NCBI GenBank assembly: GCA_964343575.1
Contig: CAYFJV010000001.1
Span: forward strand, 155,402 to 200,704
Source: an uncultured Methanosarcinales archaeon
GTDB taxonomy: Archaea; Nanobdellota; Nanobdellia; Woesearchaeales; GW2011-AR9
DNA: 45,303 nt
Direction: 5' to 3'
The translations under genes were made by a program, and so were the position numbers. Of the stretch, positions 3,475 to 34,857 are shown piece after piece (position 1 is the first letter of the stretch; every line of letters starts with the position of its first letter). The notes below the pieces were generated by a model. That model was given only the letters and a program-made list of their open reading frames with translations, did not search any database and had not been told where the DNA came from.

Positions 3475-3501
3475 ATGCAATTTCATGATTTTTATCAGAT
3501 A

Positions 3502-8094: not shown

Positions 8095-8209
8095 AATCTA
8101 TGGCTTCTGGGATCTCTTTTGTCTTTTTTTGTTTTTGATTATTTTTTTTGGATTCTTAAAAACTTCATATTCTACAAGGTTGCTTGCACAAAGTTGTCTC
8201 TTCGCTAGC

Positions 8210-8217
8210 TTTATATA
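8210..8217 (+). promoter_or_regulatory. TATA box of surface protein 2
   Basis: TTTATATA ending 27 nt before the ATG at 8244. Confidence 0.6.
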
Positions 8218-8243
8218 CTTAGATTTGCTCTATTCTCTTGTTT

Positions 8244-12110: not shown

Positions 12111-12188
12111 CTTGGGCTTGTGCTTTTTGTTTAGCTGTGAATTTCTTAGAATTTTTTCGTTTTTTTACATCTTTTTATTCCCGCTATC

Positions 12189-12196
12189 TTTATAAA
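12189..12196 (+). promoter_or_regulatory. TATA box of surface protein 3
   Basis: TTTATAAA ending 27 nt before the ATG at 12223. Confidence 0.6.
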
Positions 12197-12222
12197 GGTA
12201 AAAACTTTGCATCTTGCTATCT

Positions 12223-15200: not shown

Positions 15201-18048
15201 AGAGAACATTATTACTCTTTCTGGAGCAAGTGAAACGAGAGGTGCTTTTCGTTTTGCAGATGAAGCAAGTACAGAGAACAATACTCTTCTTAACAATAAT
15301 ATGACTTCTAATGATTTAGGAATTTATGATTTAGAAGAGAGTTCGGCTAACTATTTTGTGTACAATAACAGTTCTTTTGGACAAATTTTATGGTTTAACT
15401 TTAGTTCTGGCTCTTTTTCAAGAGATATGGACCTGGATCTAAATGGAAATACTTTTGATATGGAGTTTGGGGTTAAGTTGGATAACAATTCAATTAGTGT
15501 TAATGCTTCTTTAATCTCGGTAAACCCTAACTTGAATGAGACAGTAAATGTGAGCATTTATGGGCTTGATGAATTTGAAAACCCTTTGGCTTTGAGAGAT
15601 AGTTATTACTGTAGTGATTGTCTTGATCTCCATAATACTACGATTGACAGTGAATCTTTTGATTACCACTTTCAGGCAGGGTATCCTGGAAATTTTAGTG
15701 TTGTAAACAATAGTGCTGGTCCTGTTATTTTACAGCATGTTCTTAACACTACAACACTTGGAAATTATAGTGCAGATCCTCAGACAAGTTGGTTGAATAT
15801 AAGTGATAATGATAGTCTTTTTGTGGATGTGCATTGGGAAATCTATGAAAACAGTGTCTTTCAAAACTCTGGAATCTTTTATCAAGTTGAAGTTGGGGAG
15901 TTTAAGAATGTTGCAAACAGAAGTGCTCTTCTTTCAGATGTTGGGGATAACGTTACTGTTGGCCTCTTGGTCTCAGATGGAGAATTTAGCTCTGATTGGA
16001 TAAATGATAGTCTTGTGGTGAGAGATTTTACTGCTGGTGATGTTATCACTGAAGACGTTACTTTTACTAATGATGTTGATTGTCATGGAGATTGTCTTTT
16101 TGTAGGTAGAGATGGAATCACTATCAATATGGCTGGTTATGCTTTGATTGGGAATGGAAGTGGCATTGGAATAAACATAAGTGATTATAGTAATGTTAGC
16201 ATCTTGAATGGACATGTGAGTAATTATAGCATTGATATTTATGCAGACCCTAGTGAGGGAATTGTTCTGAATCAAACAAATGTGAGTGCTGCTGATACAG
16301 GAATCCTTTTTGAAGAGATTAATGAAAGTACTATCACTGAAGGATATATTACTAACAACAGTGTGGGAGTAAATCTTAGTGACTCTCATAATAATGATGT
16401 GTATAACAATTATTTTAACAATACTATCAATGCTGTTGATGAAGAAGATGATAATAACTGGAACACAAGTTATTCTTGTTCTACAAAGCATCGTAATATT
16501 GCTTTTGGAAATTGTACAGGTGGGAACTTCTGGAGTGATTATGAAGGAAATGATACTGATGATGATTATGTAGGAAATACAAGCGTGCCCCATAACAGTT
16601 CAGGGAATATTAATGGGAGTGGAGAGGGGGACAATTATCCTCTCTTAGTTTGTATTGAATCCTGGTCTTGTGGAGATTGGTCTGGTTGTCTTGATAATAT
16701 TCAGACGAGAAGTTGTACTGATTTGAATCTTTGTGGATCAACTGCAACTCAGCCAGATCTTTCTCAATCCTGTAGTGGTTCAAGCAGCTCAGATGATGAT
16801 TCAAGTAGCTCTGATTCAAGTACTTTTAGAGATCTAGATCCTGCAACTCAGGAAGCAATTAAAGACCTTATTAGCGATGCGATCGCTGACGGGAAGATTG
16901 CTTCTTTGAAACAATTAAGAAATGCTTTGCGTTCTGGGAAAGTGAGTCTTTCTACGATTGCTAAGAAAGCAAGCGAGGGAGAAGGTAGTGGAGCAGGAGC
17001 AGCAAGTGGTGTTAGTAGTGATCTTGGAGGGCTTGAAGGAAGTTCAGGTAGTGGGGGGGGGACTTCGGGAAAAAAATCTAGAACTTTGTTAGGACTTACT
17101 TTGGTTAACGATCTTGAAGACCTTTCTTTAGAACTGCAACCACGATTAGAACAAAATCTAGAATCGCTTTCTATTGATGCTGATCTTGCAGTGGTTGAAG
17201 GGAAAATTAAAGAAAAGCTTAGTTTTGAGGGAGATCTTTCCGAGGAAAAGGTGGAGGAAGAATTGCGGCGTTTTGCTTTGCTTGATGAACAAAATGTACT
17301 TCCTTTGATTAATCGAAAAAGTTCGACTTTTTTTACTTCCTCAACTGCTGGTGCCAGTGATAGTTTGCTTACTGGGGCTGTGGTTGGTTTAAGTGCAGAG
17401 GAGGAAAGAGAGTTAGAGGAAAGGCTTGCTAAGTCACTCTCAGGGATTGTTGCAACTTCAGAAGTGGTTGAAGGTGCTCTTTTGGAGGTTCACTTAGAAG
17501 ATGAGGAGAGTCTTGTTGTCGAACCAGGAGAGACTTTGAATACTGATCTTGGATTGCTTGGAGGTATCTCCTTGGAAGGGAGGGAGATTACTCTCTCTTT
17601 GGAAACTGAAGGCGAAGCTGTTGCCCAGCAGAAAGTGGTGCTTCCTGCAAGCGATCTTGGAGCAAATTTAGACCTTTATCAAGATGAGCGTTTCTTTGAT
17701 CTTTATGTTGTTCTCCCAGAAGTCAACGCAGAATATTCGCTTGAGCATGAATATTATATTGAAGTTGATGTTCGCCAACAAAGTGATACTTTGCTAGCAC
17801 AATTCTTTCCAATTAAGTATGCTTTTGTGAACTCTGCTCAGCGTTTATTCAAGGGGAATGATCTTCTTTACTTGGAAACTTTTGGACCTTACTCTATAGC
17901 TGAAGATGAACAATATCTCTTAGCTCAGCAATTTGCTTATGATGCTGAACGTTACAGTGAAGGCTTGCAAGAGATTCATGTGCGTGTTTATCAAGATGGG
18001 CTTCTTGTTAATGAAGATATCTTTGTAGAGGATTTTGTGTCTGAGTGA
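12223..18048 (+). CDS. Giant surface protein: SdrD-B-like domain, FG-GAP (integrin-alpha-like) repeats, beta-helix domains, Cys-rich TSP1-like motif
   Basis: MYHRKRGD + TM + ITAAVV; FEDVNGDGVFD; six FG...GDL(D/N)(G/N)DG..D(L/F).V(G/S)A repeats; NosD-like GNFWSDY; CIESWSCGDWSGC...QTRSCTDLNLCG. Confidence 0.87.
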   Translation: MYHRKRGDLGASLVLFLFMLGAVFFFSTQLSPSEGPGITAAVVTAPEIGSDNESSEDFFEQGAGSEGGADDDEGALDSEESDVESSLDPIEDQTEEESTEEGVDEELEGSEEGSGVEEGAGILGFGGGGVGVLASASIAGAVFEDVNGDGVFDAAESGIENITVRVWNDTDGDGAINATVDVVLSTVLSNETGNYTFALNTGDNYSVDISADFNRELVNYKNTTSKTSYLSDLSGDDLDVDFGLKSLSASLGLVDSSQKYTTDTNGLNLGYTVAENFGMAVANIGDLDGDGITDFAVSASGDETTGSNEGVIHIMFMNVNGSVNRSVLIGNETNGFSAPTIEDNDFFGTSIVSLGDLDGDGIVDLAVGAEADEVSDSNDGAVYILFMNANGSVSSNQVIGDSSNGFAPDNLTNADGFGYSLANLGDLNGDGVVDLAVGADYEEADGGTSNEGGLYILFMNSNGSVNSTEFIAENLNGFVPDNLDSNDFFGSSVDNIGDLDGDGVIDLAVGARGDENENSSSGAVYILFMETNGSVKNNTKIASGLNGFYPDGGALLSSDNFGSAVANLGDLDNDGINDLVVGADRDENEDSSEGAIYILFLNGDGSVKSNQKISDGLGEFNPGPDLYGLELNDFFGVSIDNAGDLNGDGITDLIVGANQDETGAATLSSGGFYVLYLAQDVACGDAISSSVNLTENLSSTGGACLTVNASNVVIDGSGFSMTGNASSDSIGINVSGFENVTIQNFAGITNFSIGVNSDNGTTGLLVQNSSIETANLSDAYAVYSVMDTNLRVEGNNITTYGNDSFAVYLIDSNGSNVSQNDIVTEDANGVFVDGEAYHNLISMNNVSLSNVTATSSLNNTGVYVDGDANNVTFNRINNSGSAQEGIVFFENNSWIEGNIFEGVEDQSIGIYGSNFTNVTVENNSILTSDAKGISVTGGSNSTISNNTITTVESGSAGIQLVSTVESHFYNNHITVGDSNGINIREENTLNTFEENIITLSGASETRGAFRFADEASTENNTLLNNNMTSNDLGIYDLEESSANYFVYNNSSFGQILWFNFSSGSFSRDMDLDLNGNTFDMEFGVKLDNNSISVNASLISVNPNLNETVNVSIYGLDEFENPLALRDSYYCSDCLDLHNTTIDSESFDYHFQAGYPGNFSVVNNSAGPVILQHVLNTTTLGNYSADPQTSWLNISDNDSLFVDVHWEIYENSVFQNSGIFYQVEVGEFKNVANRSALLSDVGDNVTVGLLVSDGEFSSDWINDSLVVRDFTAGDVITEDVTFTNDVDCHGDCLFVGRDGITINMAGYALIGNGSGIGINISDYSNVSILNGHVSNYSIDIYADPSEGIVLNQTNVSAADTGILFEEINESTITEGYITNNSVGVNLSDSHNNDVYNNYFNNTINAVDEEDDNNWNTSYSCSTKHRNIAFGNCTGGNFWSDYEGNDTDDDYVGNTSVPHNSSGNINGSGEGDNYPLLVCIESWSCGDWSGCLDNIQTRSCTDLNLCGSTATQPDLSQSCSGSSSSDDDSSSSDSSTFRDLDPATQEAIKDLISDAIADGKIASLKQLRNALRSGKVSLSTIAKKASEGEGSGAGAASGVSSDLGGLEGSSGSGGGTSGKKSRTLLGLTLVNDLEDLSLELQPRLEQNLESLSIDADLAVVEGKIKEKLSFEGDLSEEKVEEELRRFALLDEQNVLPLINRKSSTFFTSSTAGASDSLLTGAVVGLSAEEERELEERLAKSLSGIVATSEVVEGALLEVHLEDEESLVVEPGETLNTDLGLLGGISLEGREITLSLETEGEAVAQQKVVLPASDLGANLDLYQDERFFDLYVVLPEVNAEYSLEHEYYIEVDVRQQSDTLLAQFFPIKYAFVNSAQRLFKGNDLLYLETFGPYSIAEDEQYLLAQQFAYDAERYSEGLQEIHVRVYQDGLLVNEDIFVEDFVSE
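13045..14250 (+). repeat. Six FG-GAP coding repeats
   Basis: Recurring ggtgatcttgatggtga(c/t)gg-like DNA and GDLDGDG-like peptide at about 200-220 nt spacing. Confidence 0.85.
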
Positions 18049-21256: not shown

Positions 21257-21988
21257 TTGGTTGTTTCCCCGTTTAGAAAGAAAGTTGCTGAACTTGATAA
21301 GCAAGTTGATTTGCGTAAAAAAAATGCTCGGCGTAAGAAGTGTAAAATCTACTTGTTTCGCCATGCACAGACTTTCTACAATAAAAAGCATATTTTTACA
21401 GGCCACAAAGATAGTAAGCTTACTCCTTTTGGTCGAAAGCAGGCAAGAAAAGTTGCTCGACTTTTGAAGGAGAAGAAGATTGATGTTGCTGTGCATAGTA
21501 GGTTAAGTAGGTCTAAAGATACACTTTCTGCAGTACTTTCTTTTCATCCCGAGTGTTTGTTGAAGGTGGAAGATGATCGCATGATAGAGAGAAGTTATGG
21601 GGTCTTTGAAGGGAAAAGCCATAGGTGGTTTGTAGGCATGGCAAAGGAATTACTTGATGATGCGGCAACTTGGCACTATTTAGAAGGGTATCATCATGAG
21701 CATAAAGTTTTTCACAGTCTTGCTGAAAAAGAGCTTCATTTTTTAAGAAGAAATTATGTTGTTTGTCCTTCTGGTGGAGAATCAGTTAAGGATGTTGAGA
21801 AGAGAGTGAAAAGGTTTATCTCTGATCTTTTATATGTTATGCGAACTTACAAAGTACATGTAGCGATAAGTGCTCACGGCAATTCTATGCGTCCTTTTCG
21901 TCGTTATTTTGAAAAACTTAGTGTTGATCAGATGATGCAGCTAGAAAACCCTTGGGATGATTATTTTGAGTACGAAATAGAAGTTTAA
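21257..21988 (+). CDS. Histidine phosphatase / dPGM-like phosphoglycerate mutase family protein
   Basis: LFRHAQT, SRLSRS, ERSYG, GGES and SAHGNSMR motifs; TTG start after GGTGA. Confidence 0.9.
   Translation: MVVSPFRKKVAELDKQVDLRKKNARRKKCKIYLFRHAQTFYNKKHIFTGHKDSKLTPFGRKQARKVARLLKEKKIDVAVHSRLSRSKDTLSAVLSFHPECLLKVEDDRMIERSYGVFEGKSHRWFVGMAKELLDDAATWHYLEGYHHEHKVFHSLAEKELHFLRRNYVVCPSGGESVKDVEKRVKRFISDLLYVMRTYKVHVAISAHGNSMRPFRRYFEKLSVDQMMQLENPWDDYFEYEIEV
21837..21847 (-). repeat. dif-arm-like motif AGTTCGCATAA (intragenic)
   Basis: Exact TTATGCGAACT on the + strand. Confidence 0.55.
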
Positions 21989-24324: not shown

Positions 24325-24383
24325 TTATACGAACTCCTTTGGAGATAAAGAAATTAATCTTAGAGAAGAGAGTTATGTGAACA
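24325..24383 (-). repeat. Tandem dif-arm pair, module C
   Basis: Minus strand reads TGTTCACATAA...GGAGTTCGTATAATG, arms 48 nt apart, intergenic. Confidence 0.6.
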
Positions 24384-24442
24384 AATAAAGAATCAAAAGC
24401 TATAAATACTGGTCTTGGCTTGTTCTGCTCGGTGATAGATGT

Positions 24443-25165
24443 ATGAAGTTAGTTCTCTTTAAACAACCTAAAAAAGTGCGTATTGTGGAAGGTTTTCCTG
24501 GTTTTGGTTTAATTGGTACCATCGCAACTGAATTTTTATTAGAACATTTAGAAACAGAAAAAATTGGTGTTGTTGAATTTGAAGAAGCGCCGGCAATGAT
24601 TGCAATCCATCAACATAAAGTAATTGAGCCGATTAGTTTGCATTACAACAAGAAAAATAATATGGTCTTTGTCCATGCGCTTAATATTCCAAAAGGATTA
24701 GAATGGAAAGTAGCTGATGTTCTTGTTGAGCTCAGTCAAAAGTTACAAGCTCGCGAAATTATTTCTTTAGAAGGTGTTGGAAGTCCGAGCGCTGAAGGAT
24801 CACGCATCTTTTATTTCTCAAGTAATGGAAAAGGAGCTACTGCTAAACCTAAAAAGTTAGAAGGAGTTGCTTACCCTTTGATGGAAGGTATCATTGTTGG
24901 CGTGACTGGAGCACTTCTAAGCAAACAAACAAATGTTCCTTTAACGGCTCTTTTTGCAGAGGCTAAAAGTAATTTACCAGATAGTAATGCTGCAGCTGAA
25001 ATTATTAAAGCACTTGATGCTTACACTGGTTTAAAGGTTGATCCCAGGCCTTTAAAGGCGCAGGCTAAGACTTTTGAGCAAAAGTTGAAGGGAATAGTGG
25101 GAAAGAAGCAGAAGATGGCTGGAATGGTTGCAAAACGTGATGAGAAGCTGAGTTATGTGGGGTAG
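24443..25165 (+). CDS. PAC2-family proteasome assembly chaperone
   Basis: EGFPGFGLIGTIATEFL, IVGVTGALL and PDSNAAAEII motifs. Confidence 0.92.
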   Translation: MKLVLFKQPKKVRIVEGFPGFGLIGTIATEFLLEHLETEKIGVVEFEEAPAMIAIHQHKVIEPISLHYNKKNNMVFVHALNIPKGLEWKVADVLVELSQKLQAREIISLEGVGSPSAEGSRIFYFSSNGKGATAKPKKLEGVAYPLMEGIIVGVTGALLSKQTNVPLTALFAEAKSNLPDSNAAAEIIKALDAYTGLKVDPRPLKAQAKTFEQKLKGIVGKKQKMAGMVAKRDEKLSYVG

Positions 25166-25170
25166 TTAGG

Positions 25171-25545
25171 ATGCCATTAACTAGGGATGAAAGGAGAAAA
25201 GCAAATGAGATTATTGCTTTTTTGCAAACTCAACTAGAAGCTGGTGTTGATGGAATTCCTTATTGGAGAGTTGCTCTTGAAGGGAACGGTTGGTTTCGTA
25301 ATAGTTATCGAGTTGGCATATCTGTCTATGCTGCTAAAATTCCTTTGCCTTTACAGTGGACGCCCATTCTAAGAGTGTTTATCCGAGATGATAGAGGAGA
25401 GTATCCTACTCCTTTTACTTGTAAGGTTGTAGATGTGGAGTATAGGGGAAATGCAAGGAACTTCTTCATTGAGAAAGCAATGCGAGGCTCAGAGCATCTT
25501 ATTGCCTTGCTTGAAGCGAAGTTTGATTATGTGGGTTCGGTTTAA
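25171..25545 (+). CDS. Hypothetical protein
   Basis: 124-aa ORF starting 5 nt after the PAC2 gene. Confidence 0.6.
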   Translation: MPLTRDERRKANEIIAFLQTQLEAGVDGIPYWRVALEGNGWFRNSYRVGISVYAAKIPLPLQWTPILRVFIRDDRGEYPTPFTCKVVDVEYRGNARNFFIEKAMRGSEHLIALLEAKFDYVGSV

Positions 25546-25562
25546 TTTTTTAGGTAATTGTT

Positions 25563-26426
25563 ATGAACCTTGTTCATTTGAGGCGTGATGCTGATTCTTT
25601 ATTGGGAGTAATAGAACGTTTTCAAAAAAGAATTGAGCAAGAGAACAAAGCTACGGTAGTTCTTTATAGGAGGCGCGCTCTTGCAGTGCAGCGTTTGAAA
25701 GATAATCCTCGTCTTGAAGTGGTTGAAGAACTTCGTGAGATTTATGCAGAGTTTGAGCGTTATTTGGGAGAGGCTGAGAGTGATTTGGCTAAGCTTGATG
25801 AAGTATTACTTCGTTTTGAAGCTTTGGTTAGTGAAAGGGCTAACTTAAAACATTTTTTTTGGGGGAAGGTTAATGGAGGAGGAAAAAATTCTTCTGCAAG
25901 TCAAATCGTCTTACTTCGCCTAGCTGTTAGAAGGATAAGAAAGTTTCAAACTTCTTTGAAAGCAAGTTTTACTTCTGTGAAAGAGCATATTGAAGAAGAG
26001 CGGAATCTGCTTAAGAAAATGGATGGCTCTTTTTACCATTATGCTATTGAGAGTTTTATTTATGAATATGAGCAAGAGAATGCCCTAACTCGTGCTTTCT
26101 ATGAATCTTCTTCTTTTGAGAATGTTCAAAATGTAAGGAACCGTGTAGAGGCTGAATTTAAAAAATTGAATGCGCAAGATGCTTTCTTGGTAACTGGGAT
26201 TCAGTTAGTTCCTTTTGCAGGGATTGGCGCCTCAGCAGGACTTTGTTTTGGTGTGTATATGGGTTTTATGTTGTGGGTTCTTGGGATTGTTGTCAAGTAC
26301 TTACTTATGGGGCTTGTGGTAGTAAATGCAAGTCGAAGGGGCAATGATGTTAGTAAGGGAAGAAGGGGAACTTTTGCTGTTGTTGATACTGTGGCTAGAT
26401 GGCGCAAGTCTAGAAGAGCAGCATAG
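25563..26426 (+). CDS. Coiled-coil protein with C-terminal Gly-rich TM segments
   Basis: E/R/L-rich helical N-terminal region followed by a hydrophobic GIGASAGLCFG...LVVV stretch. Confidence 0.65.
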   Translation: MNLVHLRRDADSLLGVIERFQKRIEQENKATVVLYRRRALAVQRLKDNPRLEVVEELREIYAEFERYLGEAESDLAKLDEVLLRFEALVSERANLKHFFWGKVNGGGKNSSASQIVLLRLAVRRIRKFQTSLKASFTSVKEHIEEERNLLKKMDGSFYHYAIESFIYEYEQENALTRAFYESSSFENVQNVRNRVEAEFKKLNAQDAFLVTGIQLVPFAGIGASAGLCFGVYMGFMLWVLGIVVKYLLMGLVVVNASRRGNDVSKGRRGTFAVVDTVARWRKSRRAA

Positions 26427-26620
26427 TTCTGTCTTTGCTAGTTACTTTTAGACGAAAAAGATTTTGTTTTTTCTTAGTTCTTTCATTTTAAATTTTAAGA
26501 ATAATCTTTGGATAGATTTTTATTTATTTGAGAAAAGTTTCTCTTTTATTTTCTTAAAAAAAGAAATATTTAAAATCTGGTTGAAAAAACCTTCAAAAAT
26601 AAACTTTTGAGGTATGAAAC

Positions 26621-26869
26621 ATGAAAAAATTACTAAAGTTGTTTGCAGTGTTTGTTTTGATGAGTTTAGTTTTGTCAATGAGTGTGTTTGCTTTTTTACA
26701 GGAGACTTCTGCGCATTCTGGTGATCAGAACGATGGTGTTGAGCAGCCTTCTGCAGAAGAAGAACCTTCAGAACACGATTATTATGGTGGGGGTAACCAA
26801 AAATTTTCTCAAAATGAGAATTACTCTTTTGGAGATGTTAGGAATTTTTTTGGAGATCCAGAAGAATAA
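26621..26869 (+). CDS. Small secreted acidic peptide (paralogous leader 1)
   Basis: GAGGT RBS; signal peptide MKKLLKLFAVFVLMSLVLSMSVFA. Confidence 0.75.
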   Translation: MKKLLKLFAVFVLMSLVLSMSVFAFLQETSAHSGDQNDGVEQPSAEEEPSEHDYYGGGNQKFSQNENYSFGDVRNFFGDPEE

Positions 26870-26914
26870 TCTTTTCTTAATTTTATTTTTTTAAAGATAA
26901 TGGGGTAGAATATA

Positions 26915-27157
26915 ATGAAAAAAATAATGAAATTGTTAAGTGTGTTTGCAGTGATGAGTTTAGTGCTGTCGATGGGGGTTTTTGCATCAGAAGGTTTTTC
27001 GACGAGCAGTTATAGTCATACAACAGTTTTCTTGGCAACTGGAACAAATTCTGGTCAAGGTACTTTTGTCGGGGGTTTAACTTCTTTGGATGTCTGGAAT
27101 CCTCGTCAAGGAGATCATTGGGTTGCGCCAGATTCTCCTTCTGATGTTTTAGAATAA
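26915..27157 (+). CDS. Small secreted peptide (paralogous leader 2)
   Basis: GGGGT RBS; signal peptide MKKIMKLLSVFAVMSLVLSMGVFA. Confidence 0.75.
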   Translation: MKKIMKLLSVFAVMSLVLSMGVFASEGFSTSSYSHTTVFLATGTNSGQGTFVGGLTSLDVWNPRQGDHWVAPDSPSDVLE

Positions 27158-27480
27158 TCTTTTTAATTTTCCTTTTTGTTTTTGATTAAATTTTTCTACT
27201 TTAATTTTTTTAAGTTTTAATTGAAATTTTTCTTCACATTTTTTGTGAAATTCTCTTCTGCTACTTTCTATTTTTGATTAAATCTTTTTGATCAAAATCT
27301 TCTTAGAAATCCTTAAAAGAAAAATCATTGGTTTTGGAGTAATTTTGTTGCCCTACTTTCAAATTTTTTAGAAAACCTTGGCCAAATTTTCTCGGAGAAG
27401 CCGGCCTTTTTGATGCAAATGTGGCTAAGTCTGTTGTTTTACGGTTTTTGAGACAAATATGTCATGAAATGAGCTAAAAA

Positions 27481-27508
27481 ACTCCGCATAATATACATTA
27501 GGCGAACC
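27481..27508. other. dif: dif-like Xer recombination site (11-6-11)
   Basis: ACTCCGCATAA-TATACA-TTAGGCGAACC. The reverse complement GGTTCGCCTAATGTATATTATGCGGAGT matches E. coli dif (as recalled) at 22 of 28 positions, including the TGTATA spacer. Intergenic, 4 kb from xerA. Confidence 0.8.
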
Positions 27509-27541
27509 AGTTGGTGGAAAAGAGAGATTTTGGAAGAAAAA

Positions 27542-28045
27542 TTAGTCAAAGTGACCACTTTCTTGCAAATTTGCCCTTTCTCCGTGGATCTCCCCAACAA
27601 GTTCTCGCTTTTTACGGCGCTCCACTTCACTAAAATACGATGCCCCTCCCAATGCGGGCACCAGTCCTGCAATGCCAGACCAAAGAAATCCAAGCATCGC
27701 ATTCATCCTAGTTGGGTCACGAACAAGTTCATTCCCATATCTATCTAATCCTGTTGAAAAAAAAGGTTCGCCGATGTCTGCACCATGTGCTGCTCCAATA
27801 TAGGTTCCAACCCCCATCATTGCAACATAAGCAAGTAGGCAAGCGTTTGCAGCAGCACCTTCTGGTGCCCCCAATTCACCCAATAGGTTGAGGTATCTGG
27901 TCTTTGGCAACTCAGTCACTTTTGCGGGAGTTGAGTCTACAAGGTCTGTAAGATTGGGCCCTTGAGAAGCTCTTTCTTGCCCTCGTTGCTCTAGAATGTT
28001 AGTGATATCAAGTACCCTTCCATTTTTTGGAGCTTGCTCGTCCAT
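27542..28045 (-). CDS. Hypothetical membrane protein with two Gly-rich TM helices
   Basis: Hydrophobic segments LLAYVAMMGVGTYIGAAHG and LGFLWSGIAGLVPALGGA; TTTAAATA upstream. Confidence 0.65.
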   Translation of the reverse strand: MDEQAPKNGRVLDITNILEQRGQERASQGPNLTDLVDSTPAKVTELPKTRYLNLLGELGAPEGAAANACLLAYVAMMGVGTYIGAAHGADIGEPFFSTGLDRYGNELVRDPTRMNAMLGFLWSGIAGLVPALGGASYFSEVERRKKRELVGEIHGERANLQESGHFD

Positions 28046-28082
28046 GAATTTTTCAGAGGGTGTTTTTTATTTAAAAGTTGTC

Positions 28083-28622
28083 TCAAAAAAGAGACGAATT
28101 TCCTAAAATTTCATCGAGAGATAAGGGAGTAAATCTGGCGGGCACAGTAACTGGATTCTCTAGTGTGACAGAATCTGCAGACCACACATACATTGAAGTC
28201 TCTAAACCTGGAAGAAAGTTTCCATTATCATAAAAACAGTTAGTTGTCCAAGTTCCGACATCTCCATGATTAACTGCAGTCCCTCCTTCAAAAGCATAAT
28301 GTGCAGTAGTAATAATGAACTCATCTGCTTGAGTATAAGAAAAAGTGGGGCAATTTGCCCATCTCCCTTCTGGATGAGTTATGTTGAGAGAAAGTGTTCC
28401 TTGGCCAGTTTCCACCATACCAACAAAAGTGTCTCCTTCTGGGTGATATTGACATACTTCAATGGAAGTATTTTGGTCACTGTAAGCTTCTTGACACCGC
28501 TTTATTGGCCCCCGTGGGGGAACTTCAACAATACCAACTATTGGTCTTTGATATGTGCTTATTTCTCCTTGACAGGCAGATAAGCTAAAAGAAAGAGTAA
28601 GAGATTTGAGAATATTTTTCAT
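28083..28622 (-). CDS. Putative lipoprotein, hypothetical
   Basis: MKNILKSLTLSFSLSA-C lipobox. Confidence 0.7.
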   Translation of the reverse strand: MKNILKSLTLSFSLSACQGEISTYQRPIVGIVEVPPRGPIKRCQEAYSDQNTSIEVCQYHPEGDTFVGMVETGQGTLSLNITHPEGRWANCPTFSYTQADEFIITTAHYAFEGGTAVNHGDVGTWTTNCFYDNGNFLPGLETSMYVWSADSVTLENPVTVPARFTPLSLDEILGNSSLF

Positions 28623-28720
28623 TTCTTTAGGAAAAGAGCAAATTCACTTAAAATTTCCACCTCAATATTGGGGTTTTTTATTGAAAAAAATTTATAAAAA
28701 TAGTAAAAAATGAGGAGAAA

Positions 28721-29065
28721 ATGAGAGAATACCTCCCCACTTTGCTAAGAACAAATGCAGCAAGACTACAAGTACTTCCCTATGTGGCTGCAGGATACCT
28801 TAATGGTAGTATGCAGGAAGAAACAATCCAATGGGTTTTACTAGCTGCAGGCGTTGGTTTAACTGTAATGGCGTTGGACAGCAAGATATATCCTTCAGTA
28901 AGGAACCTTAGAGAAGAAAGAGTAGATTGGAGCACTGGAAGAGTAGAAGGTGCCCGTTATCGCCCCAGTGAAACTCCAACTGCACTTACTTTAGATGAGG
29001 CACTCTGGCCATTTGTGGTGGGCGCAGGAGCAGGTGCTTTTGGATATTTTATGGGAGCATTATGA
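28721..29065 (+). CDS. Hypothetical small membrane protein
   Basis: GAGGAG RBS, TTTATAAA upstream, two hydrophobic Gly-rich segments. Confidence 0.65.
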   Translation: MREYLPTLLRTNAARLQVLPYVAAGYLNGSMQEETIQWVLLAAGVGLTVMALDSKIYPSVRNLREERVDWSTGRVEGARYRPSETPTALTLDEALWPFVVGAGAGAFGYFMGAL

Positions 29066-29175
29066 TGATTAAAGTTATTGTCTTTGATTAAAATTTCCCA
29101 TTCTAAATTTATTTGTTCTTATCAATAAGTTTTATTCTCCTAAAACCATAAAAAGAAAGCTCTTTTTGTAAGCTC

Positions 29176-29778
29176 ATGCAGATAGTTGCTCATTTAGAAA
29201 AACCGTCGTTGAAAGCAGAATTTTTAGCTGCAAAATCAGTACCTCATTTACACATTAAAGATTTTTTAGATGAAAAGAGTGCAGCAGAGCTGTTAAAAGT
29301 TGTAGAAAAGCTAGACTTTGAAGAAAAAGAAAGTGATTTGTTTCACTTTTGGCAGAGCAAAAATTTGAAGATTTTGGATGATGAAAAAAACAATCAACTC
29401 TTAAAATTTTTTGATCTAATAAATTCTAGCAAAGTTAAAAACTTTCTTTCCAGCATTTCTGGCTTGAAAATTACAAATGCTGATTTTCATGCAACTAAAT
29501 ATGTGAAAACAAATTATTTGTTGCCTCATGATGATCAGTTAGAAGGGAGAAAAATTGCTTACATTTATTATCTTAGTAATTTGAAAAAAGAAGAAGGAGG
29601 GGCTTTTGAATTCTTTTCTGTTGATGAAAAAAACAAGCCACTTCTCGTCGAGAAAAGTGTACTTCCTGTTGCAAACTCTTTGTTTCTTTTTGAAGTTTCT
29701 GACAAATCTTTTCATCAGGTAAGTGAAGTGTTAAAAGATGCCCAGCGTTATGCACTTGCGGGGTGGTTTTATGGATAA
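29176..29778 (+). CDS. 2OG-Fe(II) prolyl-hydroxylase-like protein, similar to the OGFOD1/Tpa1 N-terminal catalytic domain
   Basis: HDD...H metal triad and 2OG-binding Arg: LLPHDDQLEGRKIAYIYYL...SFHQVSEV...RYALAGWFYG. Confidence 0.88.
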   Translation: MQIVAHLEKPSLKAEFLAAKSVPHLHIKDFLDEKSAAELLKVVEKLDFEEKESDLFHFWQSKNLKILDDEKNNQLLKFFDLINSSKVKNFLSSISGLKITNADFHATKYVKTNYLLPHDDQLEGRKIAYIYYLSNLKKEEGGAFEFFSVDEKNKPLLVEKSVLPVANSLFLFEVSDKSFHQVSEVLKDAQRYALAGWFYG

Positions 29779-30349
29779 TTTACACCCACTTTACTTACAG
29801 GAAGGAGTGCAAAAACAAGTTAGAGAACAGCTTTTTTCACAGGGATTTGTGCAGTTATCCTCGCTATTTTCAGTCTCAGAACTTAGAAAACTAAATAAAA
29901 TTATGCGAACTTCTGGAAAAATAAAGAGATATAATCCAGATAAATTTTCTTTTACAAAAATTTTGTTTAGCGAGGAAGAAAAGAAACTTCTTTTTGATAA
30001 AATCGGCGATTTGTTGACATGGATTGCTGGAAAAAAAGTTAAGATTTTAGAACTTGAAGGAAGAGAGTTCAAACACCGTGACTACACACTTCTTCACGAC
30101 GAAGAAAGTTTGAAAAATTATGCGAAAAAAGTAGGGAAAAGGCACTTTTTTTGTTTAGAATTAAGTTCTGATTGGCTTGAAGAAAGTGGCGGACAAGATT
30201 ATTTTGTTTTTGATGAAGAAACCTTTATTTTACCAGTTTTAGAAAACAGTTTTTCAGTAGTTCTCGAGGTAGAGAAACATTTTACTAAGTATGTAAATTG
30301 CTTAGCTGATGGTAGAAAAAGAGTTCTTATAATGGGTTTTTTCCATTAA
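29771..30349 (+). CDS. Protein resembling the OGFOD1/Tpa1 C-terminal (Ofd1_CTDD) degenerate oxygenase domain
   Basis: LHPLYL, DYTLLHD, W.EESGG, ENSFSVV and FTKYVN motifs; the ATG at 29771 overlaps the upstream stop (ATGGATAA) and follows GGGTGG. Confidence 0.8.
   Translation: MDNLHPLYLQEGVQKQVREQLFSQGFVQLSSLFSVSELRKLNKIMRTSGKIKRYNPDKFSFTKILFSEEEKKLLFDKIGDLLTWIAGKKVKILELEGREFKHRDYTLLHDEESLKNYAKKVGKRHFFCLELSSDWLEESGGQDYFVFDEETFILPVLENSFSVVLEVEKHFTKYVNCLADGRKRVLIMGFFH
29884..29911. repeat. Intragenic dif-arm copy with TAA-N6-TTA geometry
   Basis: TAGAAAACTAA-ATAAAA-TTATGCGAACT; the right arm is an exact consensus copy and the left arm is degenerate. Confidence 0.45.
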
Positions 30350-30376
30350 ATTTTTCTTCTCGGAGAGTTCGCATAA
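30321..30376 (+). repeat. Tandem dif-arm pair, module A
   Basis: GAGTTCTTATAATGG...TTCTCGGAGAGTTCGCATAA, arms 44 nt apart. Confidence 0.72.
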
Positions 30377-30378
30377 AA

Positions 30379-31320
30379 CTAAGAATAAAGAGGAACAGTG
30401 CCAGTTTCTAATTCTCCAAGAGATCTTCTAAGACCACTGGTACAAAGACCGCCTTCTCTTTTTGGTAAAACAAGAAGCTCAAGATCCTCTAAACCAGCTC
30501 TTACTTCAGAAACTCTTCTTTGATCATTAAGAAAAAAAGCTTTTATTCCTAAATAATGAAGCAGTGCTTGTCCTGCACTTCTCCTATCTAAAAATACTGC
30601 TCTTTCTTTAGATCCTTGAACTTTTCCTGAAACAAGTTCTTGAAAAAATGCTTCCCCTTCTCGACAGGTTTTTGCAAAGCTTGCGAACCTTTCCATTTGA
30701 GCATTAAAATGAGGGTCTTCTTCCAAAGAGACTATGCTATAGATTATTCCCTCTTCAGGGGGACCGGTCTCTCTGACTCTAGCAATCTGATAGCGTAAAC
30801 CAAGGATTCTTGCACCAAATTCAGCAGTATGTGCTTGTCTAAATTCCTGACTAAGATCTGTTCTTCTTCCAAGAAGAACCAAAGCTTCAAGATAAAGTTT
30901 TTCTGCTCTTAAAAGAGCATCAACTATTGAGGAAGATACCCTTGGATCATCAAGCTTCCCATGATCTTTATAGAAACAGAGACATGCGGTTCTAAGCGTC
31001 TGAGCTTGAGCAAGAGGAAGATCAAAATTATCTGGGAAACGTTCCCTGATCATACCCATTGTTCCAGCACTTTCATCTCTCAAGATACTGAGATAATTTT
31101 TAATTGGGAACTTTTCTTCGCGAGGAGAGTATGAAGGATAAGCTCTTCTAACAAATTCACTAAGTGAGATTAGTCCTCTCGTTGTACTCAATGATAACTG
31201 GCCATATTCCAATCTTATTTTCTTGCTGAAGTGAATTCCTTCTTCGTTTATTCTTCTGGCAGTTTCTTCGTCAAAAAGCTGGAAGTTAACTCCTCCTATT
31301 GATTGGCTTGGAATTAGCAT
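30379..31320 (-). CDS. Hypothetical protein (helical), divergent from xerA
   Basis: 313-aa ORF; no family recognised. Confidence 0.7.
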   Translation of the reverse strand: MLIPSQSIGGVNFQLFDEETARRINEEGIHFSKKIRLEYGQLSLSTTRGLISLSEFVRRAYPSYSPREEKFPIKNYLSILRDESAGTMGMIRERFPDNFDLPLAQAQTLRTACLCFYKDHGKLDDPRVSSSIVDALLRAEKLYLEALVLLGRRTDLSQEFRQAHTAEFGARILGLRYQIARVRETGPPEEGIIYSIVSLEEDPHFNAQMERFASFAKTCREGEAFFQELVSGKVQGSKERAVFLDRRSAGQALLHYLGIKAFFLNDQRRVSEVRAGLEDLELLVLPKREGGLCTSGLRRSLGELETGTVPLYS

Positions 31321-31421
31321 TACATTTTTTTGTTTTATCCTTTTTTTAAAATATTCTCTCTTTTCTTTAACAATAATTGACTTTTACCGATTTTTTACCT
31401 TAGAAGTGGGAAGTGATTAGA

Positions 31422-31449
31422 TTTATATAGTCTCAAGATTATCTGAACT
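31422..31449 (+). promoter_or_regulatory. xerA TATA box plus a dif-arm motif at the predicted transcription start
   Basis: TTTATATA (31422-31429), then TTATCTGAACT (31439-31449, reverse complement AGTTCAGATAA) just before the ATG at 31452. Confidence 0.6.
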
Positions 31450-31451
31450 TT

Positions 31452-32285
31452 ATGAGAAGAGGTGGAGCGAGAGATGTTGATCTTTCTGAATTAGAAACCG
31501 AATTAGAACTACGGGGGATGGCTGATAATACCATCAAGTTGTATTTCAAATACAACGCACGTTTTCTCAAATTTGCTGATAAAACTCCAGAGCAAGTCAC
31601 CAAAACTGATGTCAAAAAATTTCTTGCCAGCCTTGTGAAGAAAAAAACAGCGCCAAGAACCATTAACATGGTACGCTCGGCGCTCCTCTTTTATTACAAC
31701 GAAGTTTTGGGTAAGGATTTTGTAGCAGTAAAGATTCCAAAAGTTAAGCGCTCGCTTCCAGTTTTCTTAAGTAAGGAAGAAATAAGTCATTTGATTGTGC
31801 AAGCAGGAACAGCAAAGAGTCAGCTCATCATTAAGTTTCTCTACAGTAGCGGTTTGCGCGTCTCTGAGCTTTGTTCACTTCGCATAGAGGATCTTGAGCT
31901 TAGCGATAGGAAAGGCTTTGTACGTGATGGGAAAGGGGGTAAGGATCGCTTATTTTTCATCTCTGAAGGCTTGTCTACAGAATTGGCTGCTTTTTTGGGA
32001 CAGCTTAAGCAAGGTTATGTCTTTCCAAACCATTATGGTGAGCGTATGACTGAGCGTAATGTGCAAAAGATCATTAGTCGTGCAGGCAAGAAAGCAGGAA
32101 TTATGAAACAAGTAACCCCCCATAAACTTCGTCATTCTTTTGCTACGCATTTACATGATTCTGGAACCTCTATTCGTACTATTCAGGAATTGCTTGGTCA
32201 TGCTAATCTACAAACCACGGAGATTTATACGCATGTTTCGCAGCAGCGGCTTAGAAATGTGAAAAATCCTTTAGAGGATATTTAA
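31452..32285 (+). CDS. xerA: XerA-like tyrosine recombinase
   Basis: SAM-like N-terminal domain; catalytic R (GLRVSE), K (GKGGKDR), HKLRH, LGH and Y (TTEIY); lacks the integron-integrase insertion. Confidence 0.9.
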   Translation: MRRGGARDVDLSELETELELRGMADNTIKLYFKYNARFLKFADKTPEQVTKTDVKKFLASLVKKKTAPRTINMVRSALLFYYNEVLGKDFVAVKIPKVKRSLPVFLSKEEISHLIVQAGTAKSQLIIKFLYSSGLRVSELCSLRIEDLELSDRKGFVRDGKGGKDRLFFISEGLSTELAAFLGQLKQGYVFPNHYGERMTERNVQKIISRAGKKAGIMKQVTPHKLRHSFATHLHDSGTSIRTIQELLGHANLQTTEIYTHVSQQRLRNVKNPLEDI

Positions 32286-32362
32286 ACAAACAGAGTCCAA
32301 ATAAATGGTTTCTCTCCATATAAAAAGACGAATTAGACAAATTTATCTTCAAAGTCAGCCAT

Positions 32363-32845
32363 ATGTTTATAAAGACTGTCCAATCTAGAGACATTGTGGT
32401 ATACCAAAGGTATGAAACGCATTTAGCCAAGCTGTTAGGTATGTTTGTTGATAAGTATAGGGACGATCTTGTAACGGAGCTAGGCGGTGCTTATTACAAT
32501 AGAGTAGTATTTCCCAAGTTGGTTCGTGGAGCACTTGAAGAGGGATTAGCTTATTTAGGATTGGATGAAGAAGAAGAAGACCCCTTAAGAGTATATCTTT
32601 CTAGAAGAATAGTTGAGGCAGGTCATGATAGAGAAGCAGCGCAAGAAGTTGTTGGTGTTTTTTGTGGTACCTTGGAATCATTTTTAAGAGAGTTAGGAGA
32701 TAGTCAACGAAAAGGGATACCAGATGCTGATGAATTAAGAGCAGCTTATTCTACTGAGAGAAATGTTACAAAACTCGCAAAGCAATATGGAGTATCAAGA
32801 CCAACGATATATCGCTGGCTTAGAAGACATAAAATTAGTACTTAA
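32363..32845 (+). CDS. Protein with C-terminal resolvase/Hin-like HTH
   Basis: NVTKLAKQYGVSRPTIYRWLRRH. Confidence 0.75.
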   Translation: MFIKTVQSRDIVVYQRYETHLAKLLGMFVDKYRDDLVTELGGAYYNRVVFPKLVRGALEEGLAYLGLDEEEEDPLRVYLSRRIVEAGHDREAAQEVVGVFCGTLESFLRELGDSQRKGIPDADELRAAYSTERNVTKLAKQYGVSRPTIYRWLRRHKIST

Positions 32846-32848
32846 ATT

Positions 32849-33304
32849 TTAGAAAAAAGTCTCTAAGGTTAAATTAACCACATTCTCTTTTGCTTGTTTT
32901 TCTTTGAAGAGTGGATCAAGTTGCACAAGAATTTGTTTATTCACATAAGAACGGATAATAGGAATTCCTTTTTGAGAAAGAGAAGAGATGTATTCTTTGA
33001 CAAGAGTCAAGGGCACCTTAGCTTTTTCAGAAATTTCTTTGAAAGCCATAGAGAATTCGTTGGTGTACATCACCAAGAAGATTTGTTTCTCAACTTCATT
33101 GAGCGGCACAATGTTGTGATCAATAACACCTTGCTGCAAATGCACTTGGTCCAATCGTGCATTAAGTTTGTCAATCTTTACTTCAATGTCGTGGAGGTAA
33201 TCAAAGAGGCCTTGAATCTCAGAACTATTTTCATTAATTGCCATGAGATGTTCATCAAAATTCTCACGAACTTTGGCTATTTGTTCTCGAAGACTTGACC
33301 TCAT
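32849..33304 (-). CDS. Coiled-coil + winged-helix protein with PIP-box-like C-terminus
   Basis: N-terminal heptads; LNEVEKQIFLVMY...FKEISEKAKVPLTLVKEYISSLSQKGIPI wHTH pattern; ends NLTLETFF; GAGGT RBS. Confidence 0.78.
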   Translation of the reverse strand: MRSSLREQIAKVRENFDEHLMAINENSSEIQGLFDYLHDIEVKIDKLNARLDQVHLQQGVIDHNIVPLNEVEKQIFLVMYTNEFSMAFKEISEKAKVPLTLVKEYISSLSQKGIPIIRSYVNKQILVQLDPLFKEKQAKENVVNLTLETFF

Positions 33305-33497
33305 TTTTTACCTCTTCTTCGAAAGCTCTCGCTAGCTTTCATTACCACACAAAAGAAGTGTAAGAAAAATCTCTTACGCCTCTATCCCACCCCTGAGATG
33401 ACTTGGTGAAACTTTTATCGTTTAAATAACTTTCTCTTGTTGAGACAAGCATCACTTTTCGATGGTAAGAAGTGTTTAAAAGAAGAAGGAAAATTGT

Positions 33498-34112
33498 TTG
33501 TCGCTTAAGGGTTTTCTAGAATACTTATTTGATTATTTGTTTTCTAAGAGTAGAAATTGTTATAACTCTATTAAGTTTGAAGAAAGTGTGGAAGTTGGAA
33601 CTTATAAGAATCGAATTGGCTGGTACTTCCAAGACAGAATCCGAGACATTCTTGGAGTTATGCATAACCCCGGAGAAGGAGCAGACCTTGTCTCTTTTAA
33701 AGACGGTTTTGCACCAACGGCTATAGAAGTTAAATCACGTATGACTAAATACGGTGGCTGGTCAGTAGATAATGATCAAGTAAGAAGATATCCAAAGTTA
33801 CATAGAGAGTTAGAAGACGGTTTGTGGTGGGCTTTTGCAGTTTATGATCTTGCCTGTAGTGTTGGAGAAGTAAGAGATGAAGATGATTTTATGAAACTCA
33901 CTTCAAACAGAAGAGTTTACCTTATGAGAACAGACCTTGTTTTAGGATACAGGGTAGATAGAGGAGGGTGGAGAAACGTTCGTCTAAGAGGAGTTACTGA
34001 GGCAGCAAAAGGTTTTGTTGAAAGAGAGATTTATGGAACAAGGGTGTTTATACCTCCAGAGAGTTCTTTAACTCCAAGGTTAGAAAGACTCCTTATTCCT
34101 GTTCCTTTCTAA
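33498..34112 (+). CDS. Putative PD-(D/E)xK nuclease-fold protein
   Basis: GADLVSF...AIEVKS motif; the start codon is uncertain (TTG). Confidence 0.6.
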   Translation: MSLKGFLEYLFDYLFSKSRNCYNSIKFEESVEVGTYKNRIGWYFQDRIRDILGVMHNPGEGADLVSFKDGFAPTAIEVKSRMTKYGGWSVDNDQVRRYPKLHRELEDGLWWAFAVYDLACSVGEVRDEDDFMKLTSNRRVYLMRTDLVLGYRVDRGGWRNVRLRGVTEAAKGFVEREIYGTRVFIPPESSLTPRLERLLIPVPF

Positions 34113-34145
34113 ACTATTTTAAAGAAAGATTATTTTTTCCTTTCC

Positions 34146-34778
34146 ATGAGTTTTCGTAGTAAAAGAGAATTTGCAGTTTGCTTAAGTAAGTTAGATTCTT
34201 TTGAAACACATTCTGTAAAGTTGGAGCAGTACGCAACACCTTCAGAGATTGCAGCAGATTGGCTTTGGAATATGGCCATGCAAAGTGAGATTAATAGTCG
34301 CGTATTTCTAGATGCAGGTTGTGGTCCTGGAACTCTTGGTTTGGGTTTGTTATTGTTAGGTGCTCGTAAGGTGTATTTTTTAGATAAAGATGCTGCTGTG
34401 CTTGAAGTGTGTAGAAGAAATTTTGAAAAGTTGTCTTCAGAGTATGAGTTAGGAGAAGCAGAGTTTATTGCTTCAGATATTTCTTTGTTTGATGGAGAAG
34501 AGGGAGAGATTGACGGAGTTGTACAAAATCCTCCTTTTGGTACTAAGGAAAAACATCATGATAAAAAGTTCTTAGAAAAAGCTTTTGAGCTTTCTGGGAA
34601 GATTTGGAGTATGCATAAGTGGAGCACAAAAGTTTTTGTTGAAGCAATTGCCAAAGATCATAGTTTTGTCATTAGTTCTGTTTGGCGTTATGAGTTTCCT
34701 GTTAGAGCACAGTTCTCTTTTCATAAAAAACCTGTTCGTAAGGTAGATGTTGGCGTTTGGAAGTTGGAGAAAGCGTAG
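34146..34778 (+). CDS. METTL5-family N6-adenine rRNA methyltransferase
   Basis: LEQYATP, DAGCGPG SAM-binding motif, NPPFG, C-terminal FHKK. Confidence 0.92.
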   Translation: MSFRSKREFAVCLSKLDSFETHSVKLEQYATPSEIAADWLWNMAMQSEINSRVFLDAGCGPGTLGLGLLLLGARKVYFLDKDAAVLEVCRRNFEKLSSEYELGEAEFIASDISLFDGEEGEIDGVVQNPPFGTKEKHHDKKFLEKAFELSGKIWSMHKWSTKVFVEAIAKDHSFVISSVWRYEFPVRAQFSFHKKPVRKVDVGVWKLEKA

Positions 34779-34802
34779 ATTTTGTGTCGTTTGTTGTTTT
34801 TT

Positions 34803-34857
34803 ATGTTCTTATAATGGACTTTGAGCTTATCTCTTTGTTCTCTGAGAGTTCGCATAA
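34803..34857 (+). repeat. Tandem dif-arm pair, module B
   Basis: GTTCTTATAATGG (13/13 identical to module A)...TTCTCTGAGAGTTCGCATAA (19/20 identical to module A), arms 43 nt apart, intergenic. Confidence 0.75.

Follow-up and report, generated by a model that had tools for sequence, protein, structure and literature searches.

The question raised by the stretch of archaeal DNA analysed here, 45,303 nucleotides of contig CAYFJV010000001.1 (the window), is what a small set of polar sequences does on either side of dif, close to the gene for the tyrosine recombinase XerA. A reading made from the letters of the window alone, hereafter the sequence-only reading, had described three modules of about 56 bp, each with two directly repeated arms, and had likened them to Ter or KOPS (FtsK-orienting polar sequences) signals or to cassette boundaries. 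We found that the true unit is not the paired-arm module; it is a lone dif half-site whose dif-facing side carries a T-rich tract together with a dyad of 3-5 bp. The direction-sorted array of these hairpin-fused half-sites, carried by a narrow woesearchaeal group, is a real element, and the lone sites are likely selected and bound by XerA, probably without recombining.

The genome of the window (G000; 1.21 Mb in six contigs) was compared with two genomes of the same genus (G001 and G002), one of another genus (G078) and further relatives. Its dif (27481..27508, no strand assigned) has the features of an archaeal dif: inverted 11-bp arms, which agree with the lineage consensus at 9/11 positions, a 6-bp spacer (TATACA/TGTATA) and a position near xerA. 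In relatives the consensus is AGTTCGCATAA-TGTATA-TTATGCGAACT, and a matching 11-6-11 site lies within about 8 kb of xerA in 21 of 46 xerA loci, many of the remaining 25 being short or carrying a paralogue. The likely binder of the lone sites is the product of xerA (31452..32285, plus strand), an intact tyrosine recombinase of 277 amino acids with Pfam PF00589 and a SAM domain; R136, K161/K164, H224, R227, H250 and Y259, which we take to be its catalytic residues, are unchanged across 14 aligned relatives.

Lone half-sites and their distribution

In order, each lone site comprises the T-rich tract, a short dyad that extends into the arm's first bases, and the arm itself; TGT often follows (at 10 of the 23 strict sites). 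G000 holds five copies of the strict motif RGTTCG[CTG]ATAA, all within 7.4 kb of dif, at 21847(-), 24335(-), 29911(-), 30366(+) and 34847(+). All three modules of the sequence-only reading exist as it described them: A at 30321-30376, B at 34803-34857 and, on the minus strand, C at 24325-24383, with arms 44, 43 and 48 bp apart, respectively. The distance to dif is 3.1 kb for C, on its left, and 2.8 kb for A, on its right; GTTCTTATAATGG is identical in A and B, and a 20-mer matches at 19/20, the sole mismatch being the centre of the hairpin loop. The proposed link to Xer also held, as the strong arms are near-perfect dif halves (A and B 11/11, C 10/11 to the dif-arm consensus) clustered at dif. 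In site A (30358..30376, plus strand) the dyad TCT-CGG-AGA is followed by a perfect half-site from 30366 (17.2 bits, stem 3), which stops 2 nt short of the stop codon of a convergent 313-aa gene. Site B (34839..34857, plus strand; 17.2 bits) consists of a dyad, a perfect half-site from 34847 and then TGT, and lies downstream of a methyltransferase gene (34146-34778); orthologues of it are present in G001 and G002. Site C (24325..24344, minus strand) combines the dyad CTCC-AAA-GGAG with a half-site from 24335 (16.7 bits, stem 4).

The three modules were not the full set, since two sites in coding sequence (21837-21847 and 29901-29911) had been overlooked. Site D (29901..29918, minus strand; perfect half-site plus dyad, 17.2 bits, stem 3) is inside an Ofd1-like gene and is the innermost left-facing site, to the right of dif, and site E (21837..21855, minus strand; perfect half-site, dyad ACTT-TGT-AAGT, 17.2 bits, stem 4) is inside a histidine phosphatase gene. 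Weaker matches at 33932(-), 33977(+), 38035(+) and 41818(-), two of which face dif, reach 11-12 bits, the strength of background, and were left out of the counts; 10 of 25 motif matches fall within the window. The lone sites fall outside the definition of a dif site, and a second, inverted arm at the 6-bp dif spacing is absent from all 27 of them, each scoring below 0 bits at the right-arm position.

One further half-site (31439..31449, minus strand; 11.3 bits, without a strong dyad) lies at the start of xerA and is probably an autoregulatory site for XerA. Half-sites of dif that overlap the promoter or the start of xerA occur in at least 12 loci, array-bearing or not, with equivalents in G001, G007, G011, G019, G023, G030, G042, G075, G076, G078, G079 and others.

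Genome-wide scans used a weight matrix built from 40 dif arms of relatives, with G000 left out, though its consensus had seeded the dif search. In G000, 20 matches scored 13 bits or more, and 6 of them are no farther than 12 kb from dif, where 0.4 would be expected. In G001 all five copies in the genome are on the xerA contig, as are all three in G002, one of them a dif arm, and in G078 all 11 copies are on three contigs, two of which were placed around dif by gene order and skew, without overlap. The cluster is present in 4 of 114 family genomes (G000, G001, G002 and G078); G007, G011, G074-G077 and G079 have dif arms, the xerA-promoter site and scattered matches, but the array layout is absent from them. 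A stricter, extended motif matched in 11 of 401 genomes of the order (with 6 control matches) and uncovered no further array, and no dyad-bearing cluster was found in the examined stretches of G110, G111, G112, G009 and G030. Two copies of the extended motif occurred only in G000 and G055 among the 401; G055 was rejected as an array genome, its pair being a duplicated stretch of about 70 bp that ends in a dif-like half-site (C4:4651 and 5578, 927 bp apart) off the xerA contig.

The distribution of the array is matched by that of one XerA residue, M218, which is confined to array genomes among 48 distinct aligned XerA-family proteins and, searched for as a pattern, occurs in exactly the four array genomes of the 114, although it was chosen after the fact, from two independent lineages and a quick tree. 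A protein identical to the M218-type XerA is also encoded in a 1.6-kb locus (L031) that could not be scored for sites. Private columns of this kind common to G078 and the genus of G000 number 3, vs 0-2 for nine others.

Direction, turnover and the dyad

In G000, G001 and G078 all left-facing sites lie to the left of all right-facing ones, an arrangement with a chance of 1/10, 1/10 and 1/210, respectively (the genomes are kin). The sequence-only reading had every module pointing away from dif, a rule broken by the perfect site D, which lies to the right of dif and points left; because of this site the switch of direction in G000 falls between 29911 and 30322. Relative to dif, the switch lies between +2.4 and +2.8 kb in G000, between +1.5 and +2.7 kb in G001 and between -1.0 and -0.6 kb in G078, and 18 of the 22 placed strict sites point away from dif, the remaining 4 being within 2.5 kb of it. 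The polarity and the analogy with Ter survive in altered form, the sites being sorted by direction around a point no more than 3 kb from dif, and the arrangement that had been named as fatal to them, sites scattered genome-wide in random orientation, was not what we found: the sites are local and direction-sorted. The gap between the innermost opposed sites is 411 bp in G000 (29911-30322), 1.3 kb in G001 and 0.35 kb in G078; in all three genomes two opposed polar sets flank a gap, which is the geometry of a ter fork trap. Direction is independent of transcription, with 12 of 24 sites facing a gene start and 12 not.

The sites turn over. G001 too has a left-facing site in the Ofd1-like gene that holds site D, though not at the same codons; site E encodes MRT at a position occupied by MKK or VKK in three homologues, two amino-acid changes at a conserved KK; and the gene outside site A in G000 sits inside the site in G002. 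That sites arise within genes at non-orthologous places, one of them altering the conserved KK, points to selection on the DNA, and this turnover agrees with selection that maintains a bound site within a certain zone and orientation rather than with insertion junctions. Two neighbouring genes that had been called orphans have homologues in genomes of the same genus. Neither helix-turn-helix (HTH) gene proposed as a partner found support: for the one at 32363-32845, none of the 8 further loci compared contains a homologue, and the one at 32849-33304 lies beside xerA in array-free loci also and was not seen beside xerA in G078. The latter is a winged-helix (TrmB-like) gene that adjoins xerA in six other loci, with or without an array.

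Of the 27 lone sites, 21 have a stem of 3 bp or more, vs 10 of 77 matches at control loci and 11 of 80 distant matches in G000, and its sequence varies (CTCC/GGAG, CCAC/GTGG, AACCC/GGGTT, ACTT/AAGT). When the upstream halves of the 23 strict sites were swapped within genomes, 63 bases were paired vs 79 observed, and none of 4000 swaps reached 79; by genome, p for covariation was 0.20 in G000 (five sites), 0.044 in G001 and 0.002 in G078. A dyad maintained by pairing suggests a single-stranded step, such as the passage of a fork. Larger structures were sought and rejected: no long single-strand fold beats shuffles, and for a structured RNA there was a single Rfam match (E 0.91), far below threshold.

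The upstream arms that had completed the modules are weaker, and all three are without a dyad. The weak arm of A (30322..30332, plus strand; 13.7 bits) lies 44 bp upstream, within the codons for RVLIMG at the end of the Ofd1-like gene 29738-30349, and, near as these are to the sequence of homologues, is partly fixed by the protein; that of B (34804..34814, plus strand; 11.0 bits, 43 bp upstream) aligns in G001 with a T-rich stretch that is not a half-site; and that of C (24373..24383, minus strand) scores 9.5 bits, 48 bp upstream. The 13-nt identity of weak arms is mostly the shared motif. Direct arm pairs (at least 9 bits each, 30-60 bp apart) number 5 genome-wide vs 1.65 expected, and only A, B and C include a top-scoring arm. 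Among lone sites, an upstream direct arm of at least 9 bits accompanies only 3 of 27, all in G000; with a chance of about 0.001-0.004 per site, these arms are real, though local. The paired module is not a conserved unit; of the spacing and polarity to be sought in related genomes, the sorted polarity recurs in G001 and G078, while a second direct arm 43-48 bp upstream is found at 0 of 20 lone sites in G001, G002 and G078. Nor can binding on one face of the helix be general, 48 bp being about 4.6 turns, so that the arms of C are not on the same face as those at 43-44 bp. We read the weak arms as putative secondary XerA sites gained in the G000 lineage alone. Scored against a promoter matrix that had been learned from 152 divergent upstream regions, A reaches 2.3 and B -0.7, and the weak arms were rejected as TATA boxes. 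Across sites there is a modest promoter signal 38-50 nt upstream (in one of seven windows tried), which in G001 and G002 fits the divergent inner gene; it was likewise rejected as an explanation of the arms. A ribosome-binding-site idea (GGAG...ATG across the half-site) was also dropped, the ATG opening a long frame in 1 of 24 sites. In many of the same 152 regions of G000 a B-recognition element and TATA box (BRE-TATA) begins 36 nt before the ATG, and promoters are apparently leaderless.

Possible functions of the array

As a first choice, and a tentative one, we suggest that the sites are one-way barriers that trap replication forks beside dif. XerA would bind a lone dif arm without recombining. 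A fork arriving from outside would meet the spacer (TGT) side first and pass; after crossing dif it would meet the opposite set from the side of the T-tract and dyad, where unwinding would let the hairpin fold against bound XerA and the fork would stall. The trap itself would occupy the gap that separates the innermost opposed sites, with the outer sites as back-ups, and replication would end beside dif in a cell where no FtsK was found. The four sites that face dif would mark the inner edge of the trap, which predicts them. Known Ter traps have the same sorted geometry, together with autoregulation (PMC10331603; here and below, PMC numbers refer to excerpts of the papers), and purified Pyrococcus abyssi XerA cleaves half-site suicide substrates in vitro (PMC3646895). 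It is possible, though rather doubtful, that this would be the first archaeal fork trap to re-use XerA, without FtsK, Tus or RTP, and that it arose at least twice in one family of Woesearchaeota, each time with M218.

Several observations weigh against a fork trap or the evidence for it. In G078, which has the largest array, skew is unchanged at dif (0.16 left, 0.20 right), whereas in array-free G007 it drops there; the gap and the switch in strand skew coincide in G000, weakly in G001 and not in G078. Termination in Sulfolobus occurs by stochastic collision (PMC3020120). In Bacillus subtilis, forks meeting the strong half of a site first are blocked (PMC10331603), a rule that would, by analogy, reverse the direction predicted for A, B and C. 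A stem of 3-5 bp is weak, in G000 on its own the dyad's covariation falls short of significance (p 0.20), and the modules, taken whole, do not fold better than shuffled sequences (z -1.6 to +0.7). The array is carried by only two independent lineages, the join of C6 and C7 in G078 was inferred and an overlap between them was looked for and not found, and some circularity remains in a matrix trained on dif sites that were found via a consensus derived from the window.

Strand skew on contig C1 of G000 has its best change point at 27542 of the window, beside dif, where it goes from 0.24 to 0.05 with its sign unchanged, a point in favour of the trap. Over C1 and C2, which are joined in the same direction via C4 by 55-bp overlaps, the skew is one-signed, being positive throughout, strong up to dif and weak beyond. 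In the single-contig genome G052 it is negative in 20 of 22 sampled 20-kb windows; G076 was also sampled.

The next candidate, which we consider less likely than a fork trap, is a barrier to SMC (structural maintenance of chromosomes) complexes, in which XerA at lone sites would unload or stall Smc-ScpAB on each chromosome arm and keep dif clear. The barrier would depend on orientation in the manner of CTCF, for which the orientation of the site matters. The genome encodes Smc, ScpA and ScpB, and M218 is a surface-type residue; but ScpA is present equally in array-free G007 and G076, M218 was picked post hoc from two independent lineages, and the covarying dyad is left unexplained. Bacterial XerD unloads Smc-ScpAB at dif-like sites (XDS) in the terminus, according to a second-hand account in PMC11840125. 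In Thermococcus kodakarensis, XerA was located on dif by ChIP-seq, but deletion of xerA or dif leaves the Smc boundary as it was (PMC11840125).

About as doubtful, and placed just after it, is a role in resolving chromosome dimers, in which XerA at mirrored sites would pair the flanks of dif or the sister termini, or orient some translocase, for resolution at dif without FtsK. Distances from dif are roughly mirrored (-3.1/+2.9 and -5.6/+7.4 kb in G000, -5.5/+6.3 kb in G001), and G000, G001 and G002 each have a site 2.7-2.9 kb to the right of dif despite their differing gene content, but the symmetry is loose in G078. Against this role, the known accessory sequences of cer and psi lie within about 200 bp of the core. 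The dif arms of G000 are poorer than its lone sites and one dif arm of G001 is degenerate, but degenerate dif arms occur in array-free G079 and G056 too, and close relatives resolve dimers with dif alone. How archaea control the direction of resolution is an open question (PMC8371274).

Gene capture resembling that of integrons is unlikely. Here XerA would insert DNA at the spacer side of the hairpin-bearing half-site and so build a variable region near dif. This would suit the covariation of the hairpin, the TGT after 10 of 23 strict sites, the series of sites in G078 that face one way at intervals of 0.5-2.1 kb, the end of site A 2 nt from a stop codon and the several sites flanked by a core gene on the inner and an accessory gene on the outer side. 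Yet several sites face core genes (rpl11, xerA, SOD, PPDK), and three sites, two in G000 and one in G001, lie in intact genes; moreover, the genes flanking B are the same in G001, and in G002 the neighbour of A is on the opposite side of its site, which also leaves the cassette boundaries of the sequence-only reading without support. Both orientations mimic one arm and hence are not attL/attR pairs, and the extended motif had 0 matches in viral contigs. After integration at dif the remaining arms should face dif, contrary to observation, and integration scars at dif were rejected for this wrong orientation.

That orientation is seen in G075 (C17:49789-51278), where a dif with a degenerate right arm is followed by two dyad-less lone arms, 0.76 and 1.5 kb away, that face dif as expected of insertions into it, unlike the array. 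Degenerate dif right arms are also found in G001, G079 and G056.

Slightly less likely again is a XerA regulon, in which the sites would tune nearby promoters as the half-site at the start of xerA probably does. Twelve sites face a gene start, and at 5 of these a BRE-TATA begins 25-27 nt, and the ATG 62-66 nt, after the start of the site. The 25-27 nt amount to about one dif length, however, and may correspond to a 28-bp footprint, the size of dif, that the promoter leaves free; the other 12 of 24 sites face no gene start, the targets are unrelated, and a regulon would neither cluster at dif nor sort by chromosome direction. Finally, chance matches, or operators or remnants of miniature inverted-repeat transposable elements unrelated to Xer, are very improbable: weak arms do owe something to coding sequence (A) or T-rich DNA (B), but the excess of matches near dif is repeated in three relatives, and no Rfam family rose above noise.

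Setting, known systems and significance

Just left of dif are two small paralogous ORFs (26621-26869 and 26915-27157) with signal-peptide-like starts and without a Pfam match, and to its right an adjacent gene pair (29176-30349), kept beside dif in the genus, represents two halves of an Ofd1/Tpa1-like 2OG-Fe(II) oxygenase. Further left (3475-18048) there are three huge ORFs of 1539, 1290 and 1944 aa with internal repeats, those of the 1944-aa ORF being 210-222-nt repeats of GDLDGDG type; the large ORFs probably encode surface proteins. Elsewhere in G000, a second tyrosine recombinase (C2:449115-449903) matches XerA at 40%, and there are three Orc1/Cdc6 homologues, the best of which, at C2:93445, would be roughly opposite dif if C2 closes onto C1.

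Among known systems, the array can be compared with the Tus-ter trap of Escherichia coli and the RTP-Ter trap of B. subtilis, with which it shares opposed polar sets at the terminus, outer back-ups and a site at the promoter of the gene for the binder (PMC10331603), and the pairs of weak and strong half-sites in G000 recall the A/B sites of RTP (PMC10331603). Unlike in those traps, the candidate binder is a recombinase, the site is a dif arm, the gap is 0.35-1.3 kb, and fork arrest is a prediction.

XDS are attributed to a study by Karaboja et al. in 2021. Like the XDS of B. subtilis, XerD-bound dif-like sites that unload Smc-ScpAB (PMC11840125, PMC12322038), the lone sites are extra Xer-type sites that cluster at dif, are apparently non-recombining and occur in a host with Smc-ScpAB, which array-free genomes also have. 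They differ in relying on the single archaeal recombinase XerA, in lying within about 27 kb of dif and in their strict direction sorting and fused, covarying dyad, neither of which is mentioned for XDS in the excerpts of PMC11840125 and PMC12322038.

The archaeal Xer/dif system with its archaeal short polarized sequences (ASPS; Cortez et al., 2010, PMC2958812) and KOPS likewise involve XerA, an 11-6-11 dif or polar sequences near dif. Unlike ASPS (4-mers) and KOPS (8-mers), which are skewed along whole replichores, the lone sites are about 20 bp long, few (5 strict copies genome-wide) and local, with a switch up to 3 kb off dif and no FtsK found in G000; they are not the frequent, replichore-wide sequences read by FtsK that define KOPS and ASPS, and the KOPS-like part of the sequence-only reading fits poorly.

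An integron attC site is a long inverted repeat with two boxes. The lone sites share with attC a tyrosine recombinase, a structure kept while its sequence varies and accessory genes nearby, but their stem is 3-5 bp, they lie on both sides of the core site and some are in intact genes, which places them outside the definition of an integron cassette array.

In the literature searched, mostly non-subscription papers, we found no account of polar XerA half-site arrays in archaea. Only one archaeon had been studied by ChIP-seq in the papers we read; its XerA was found at dif, and the Smc boundary did not require it (excerpts of PMC11840125). The array bears on how archaea that lack FtsK couple replication termination to dimer resolution, which is an open question (PMC8371274, PMC2958812), and it offers a 20-bp substrate, a predicted blocking face and, in array-free sister genomes, natural controls. 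If any of the three leading mechanisms, the fork trap, the SMC barrier or the aid to pairing at dif, is true, it would be a new, non-recombining role for an archaeal Xer protein.

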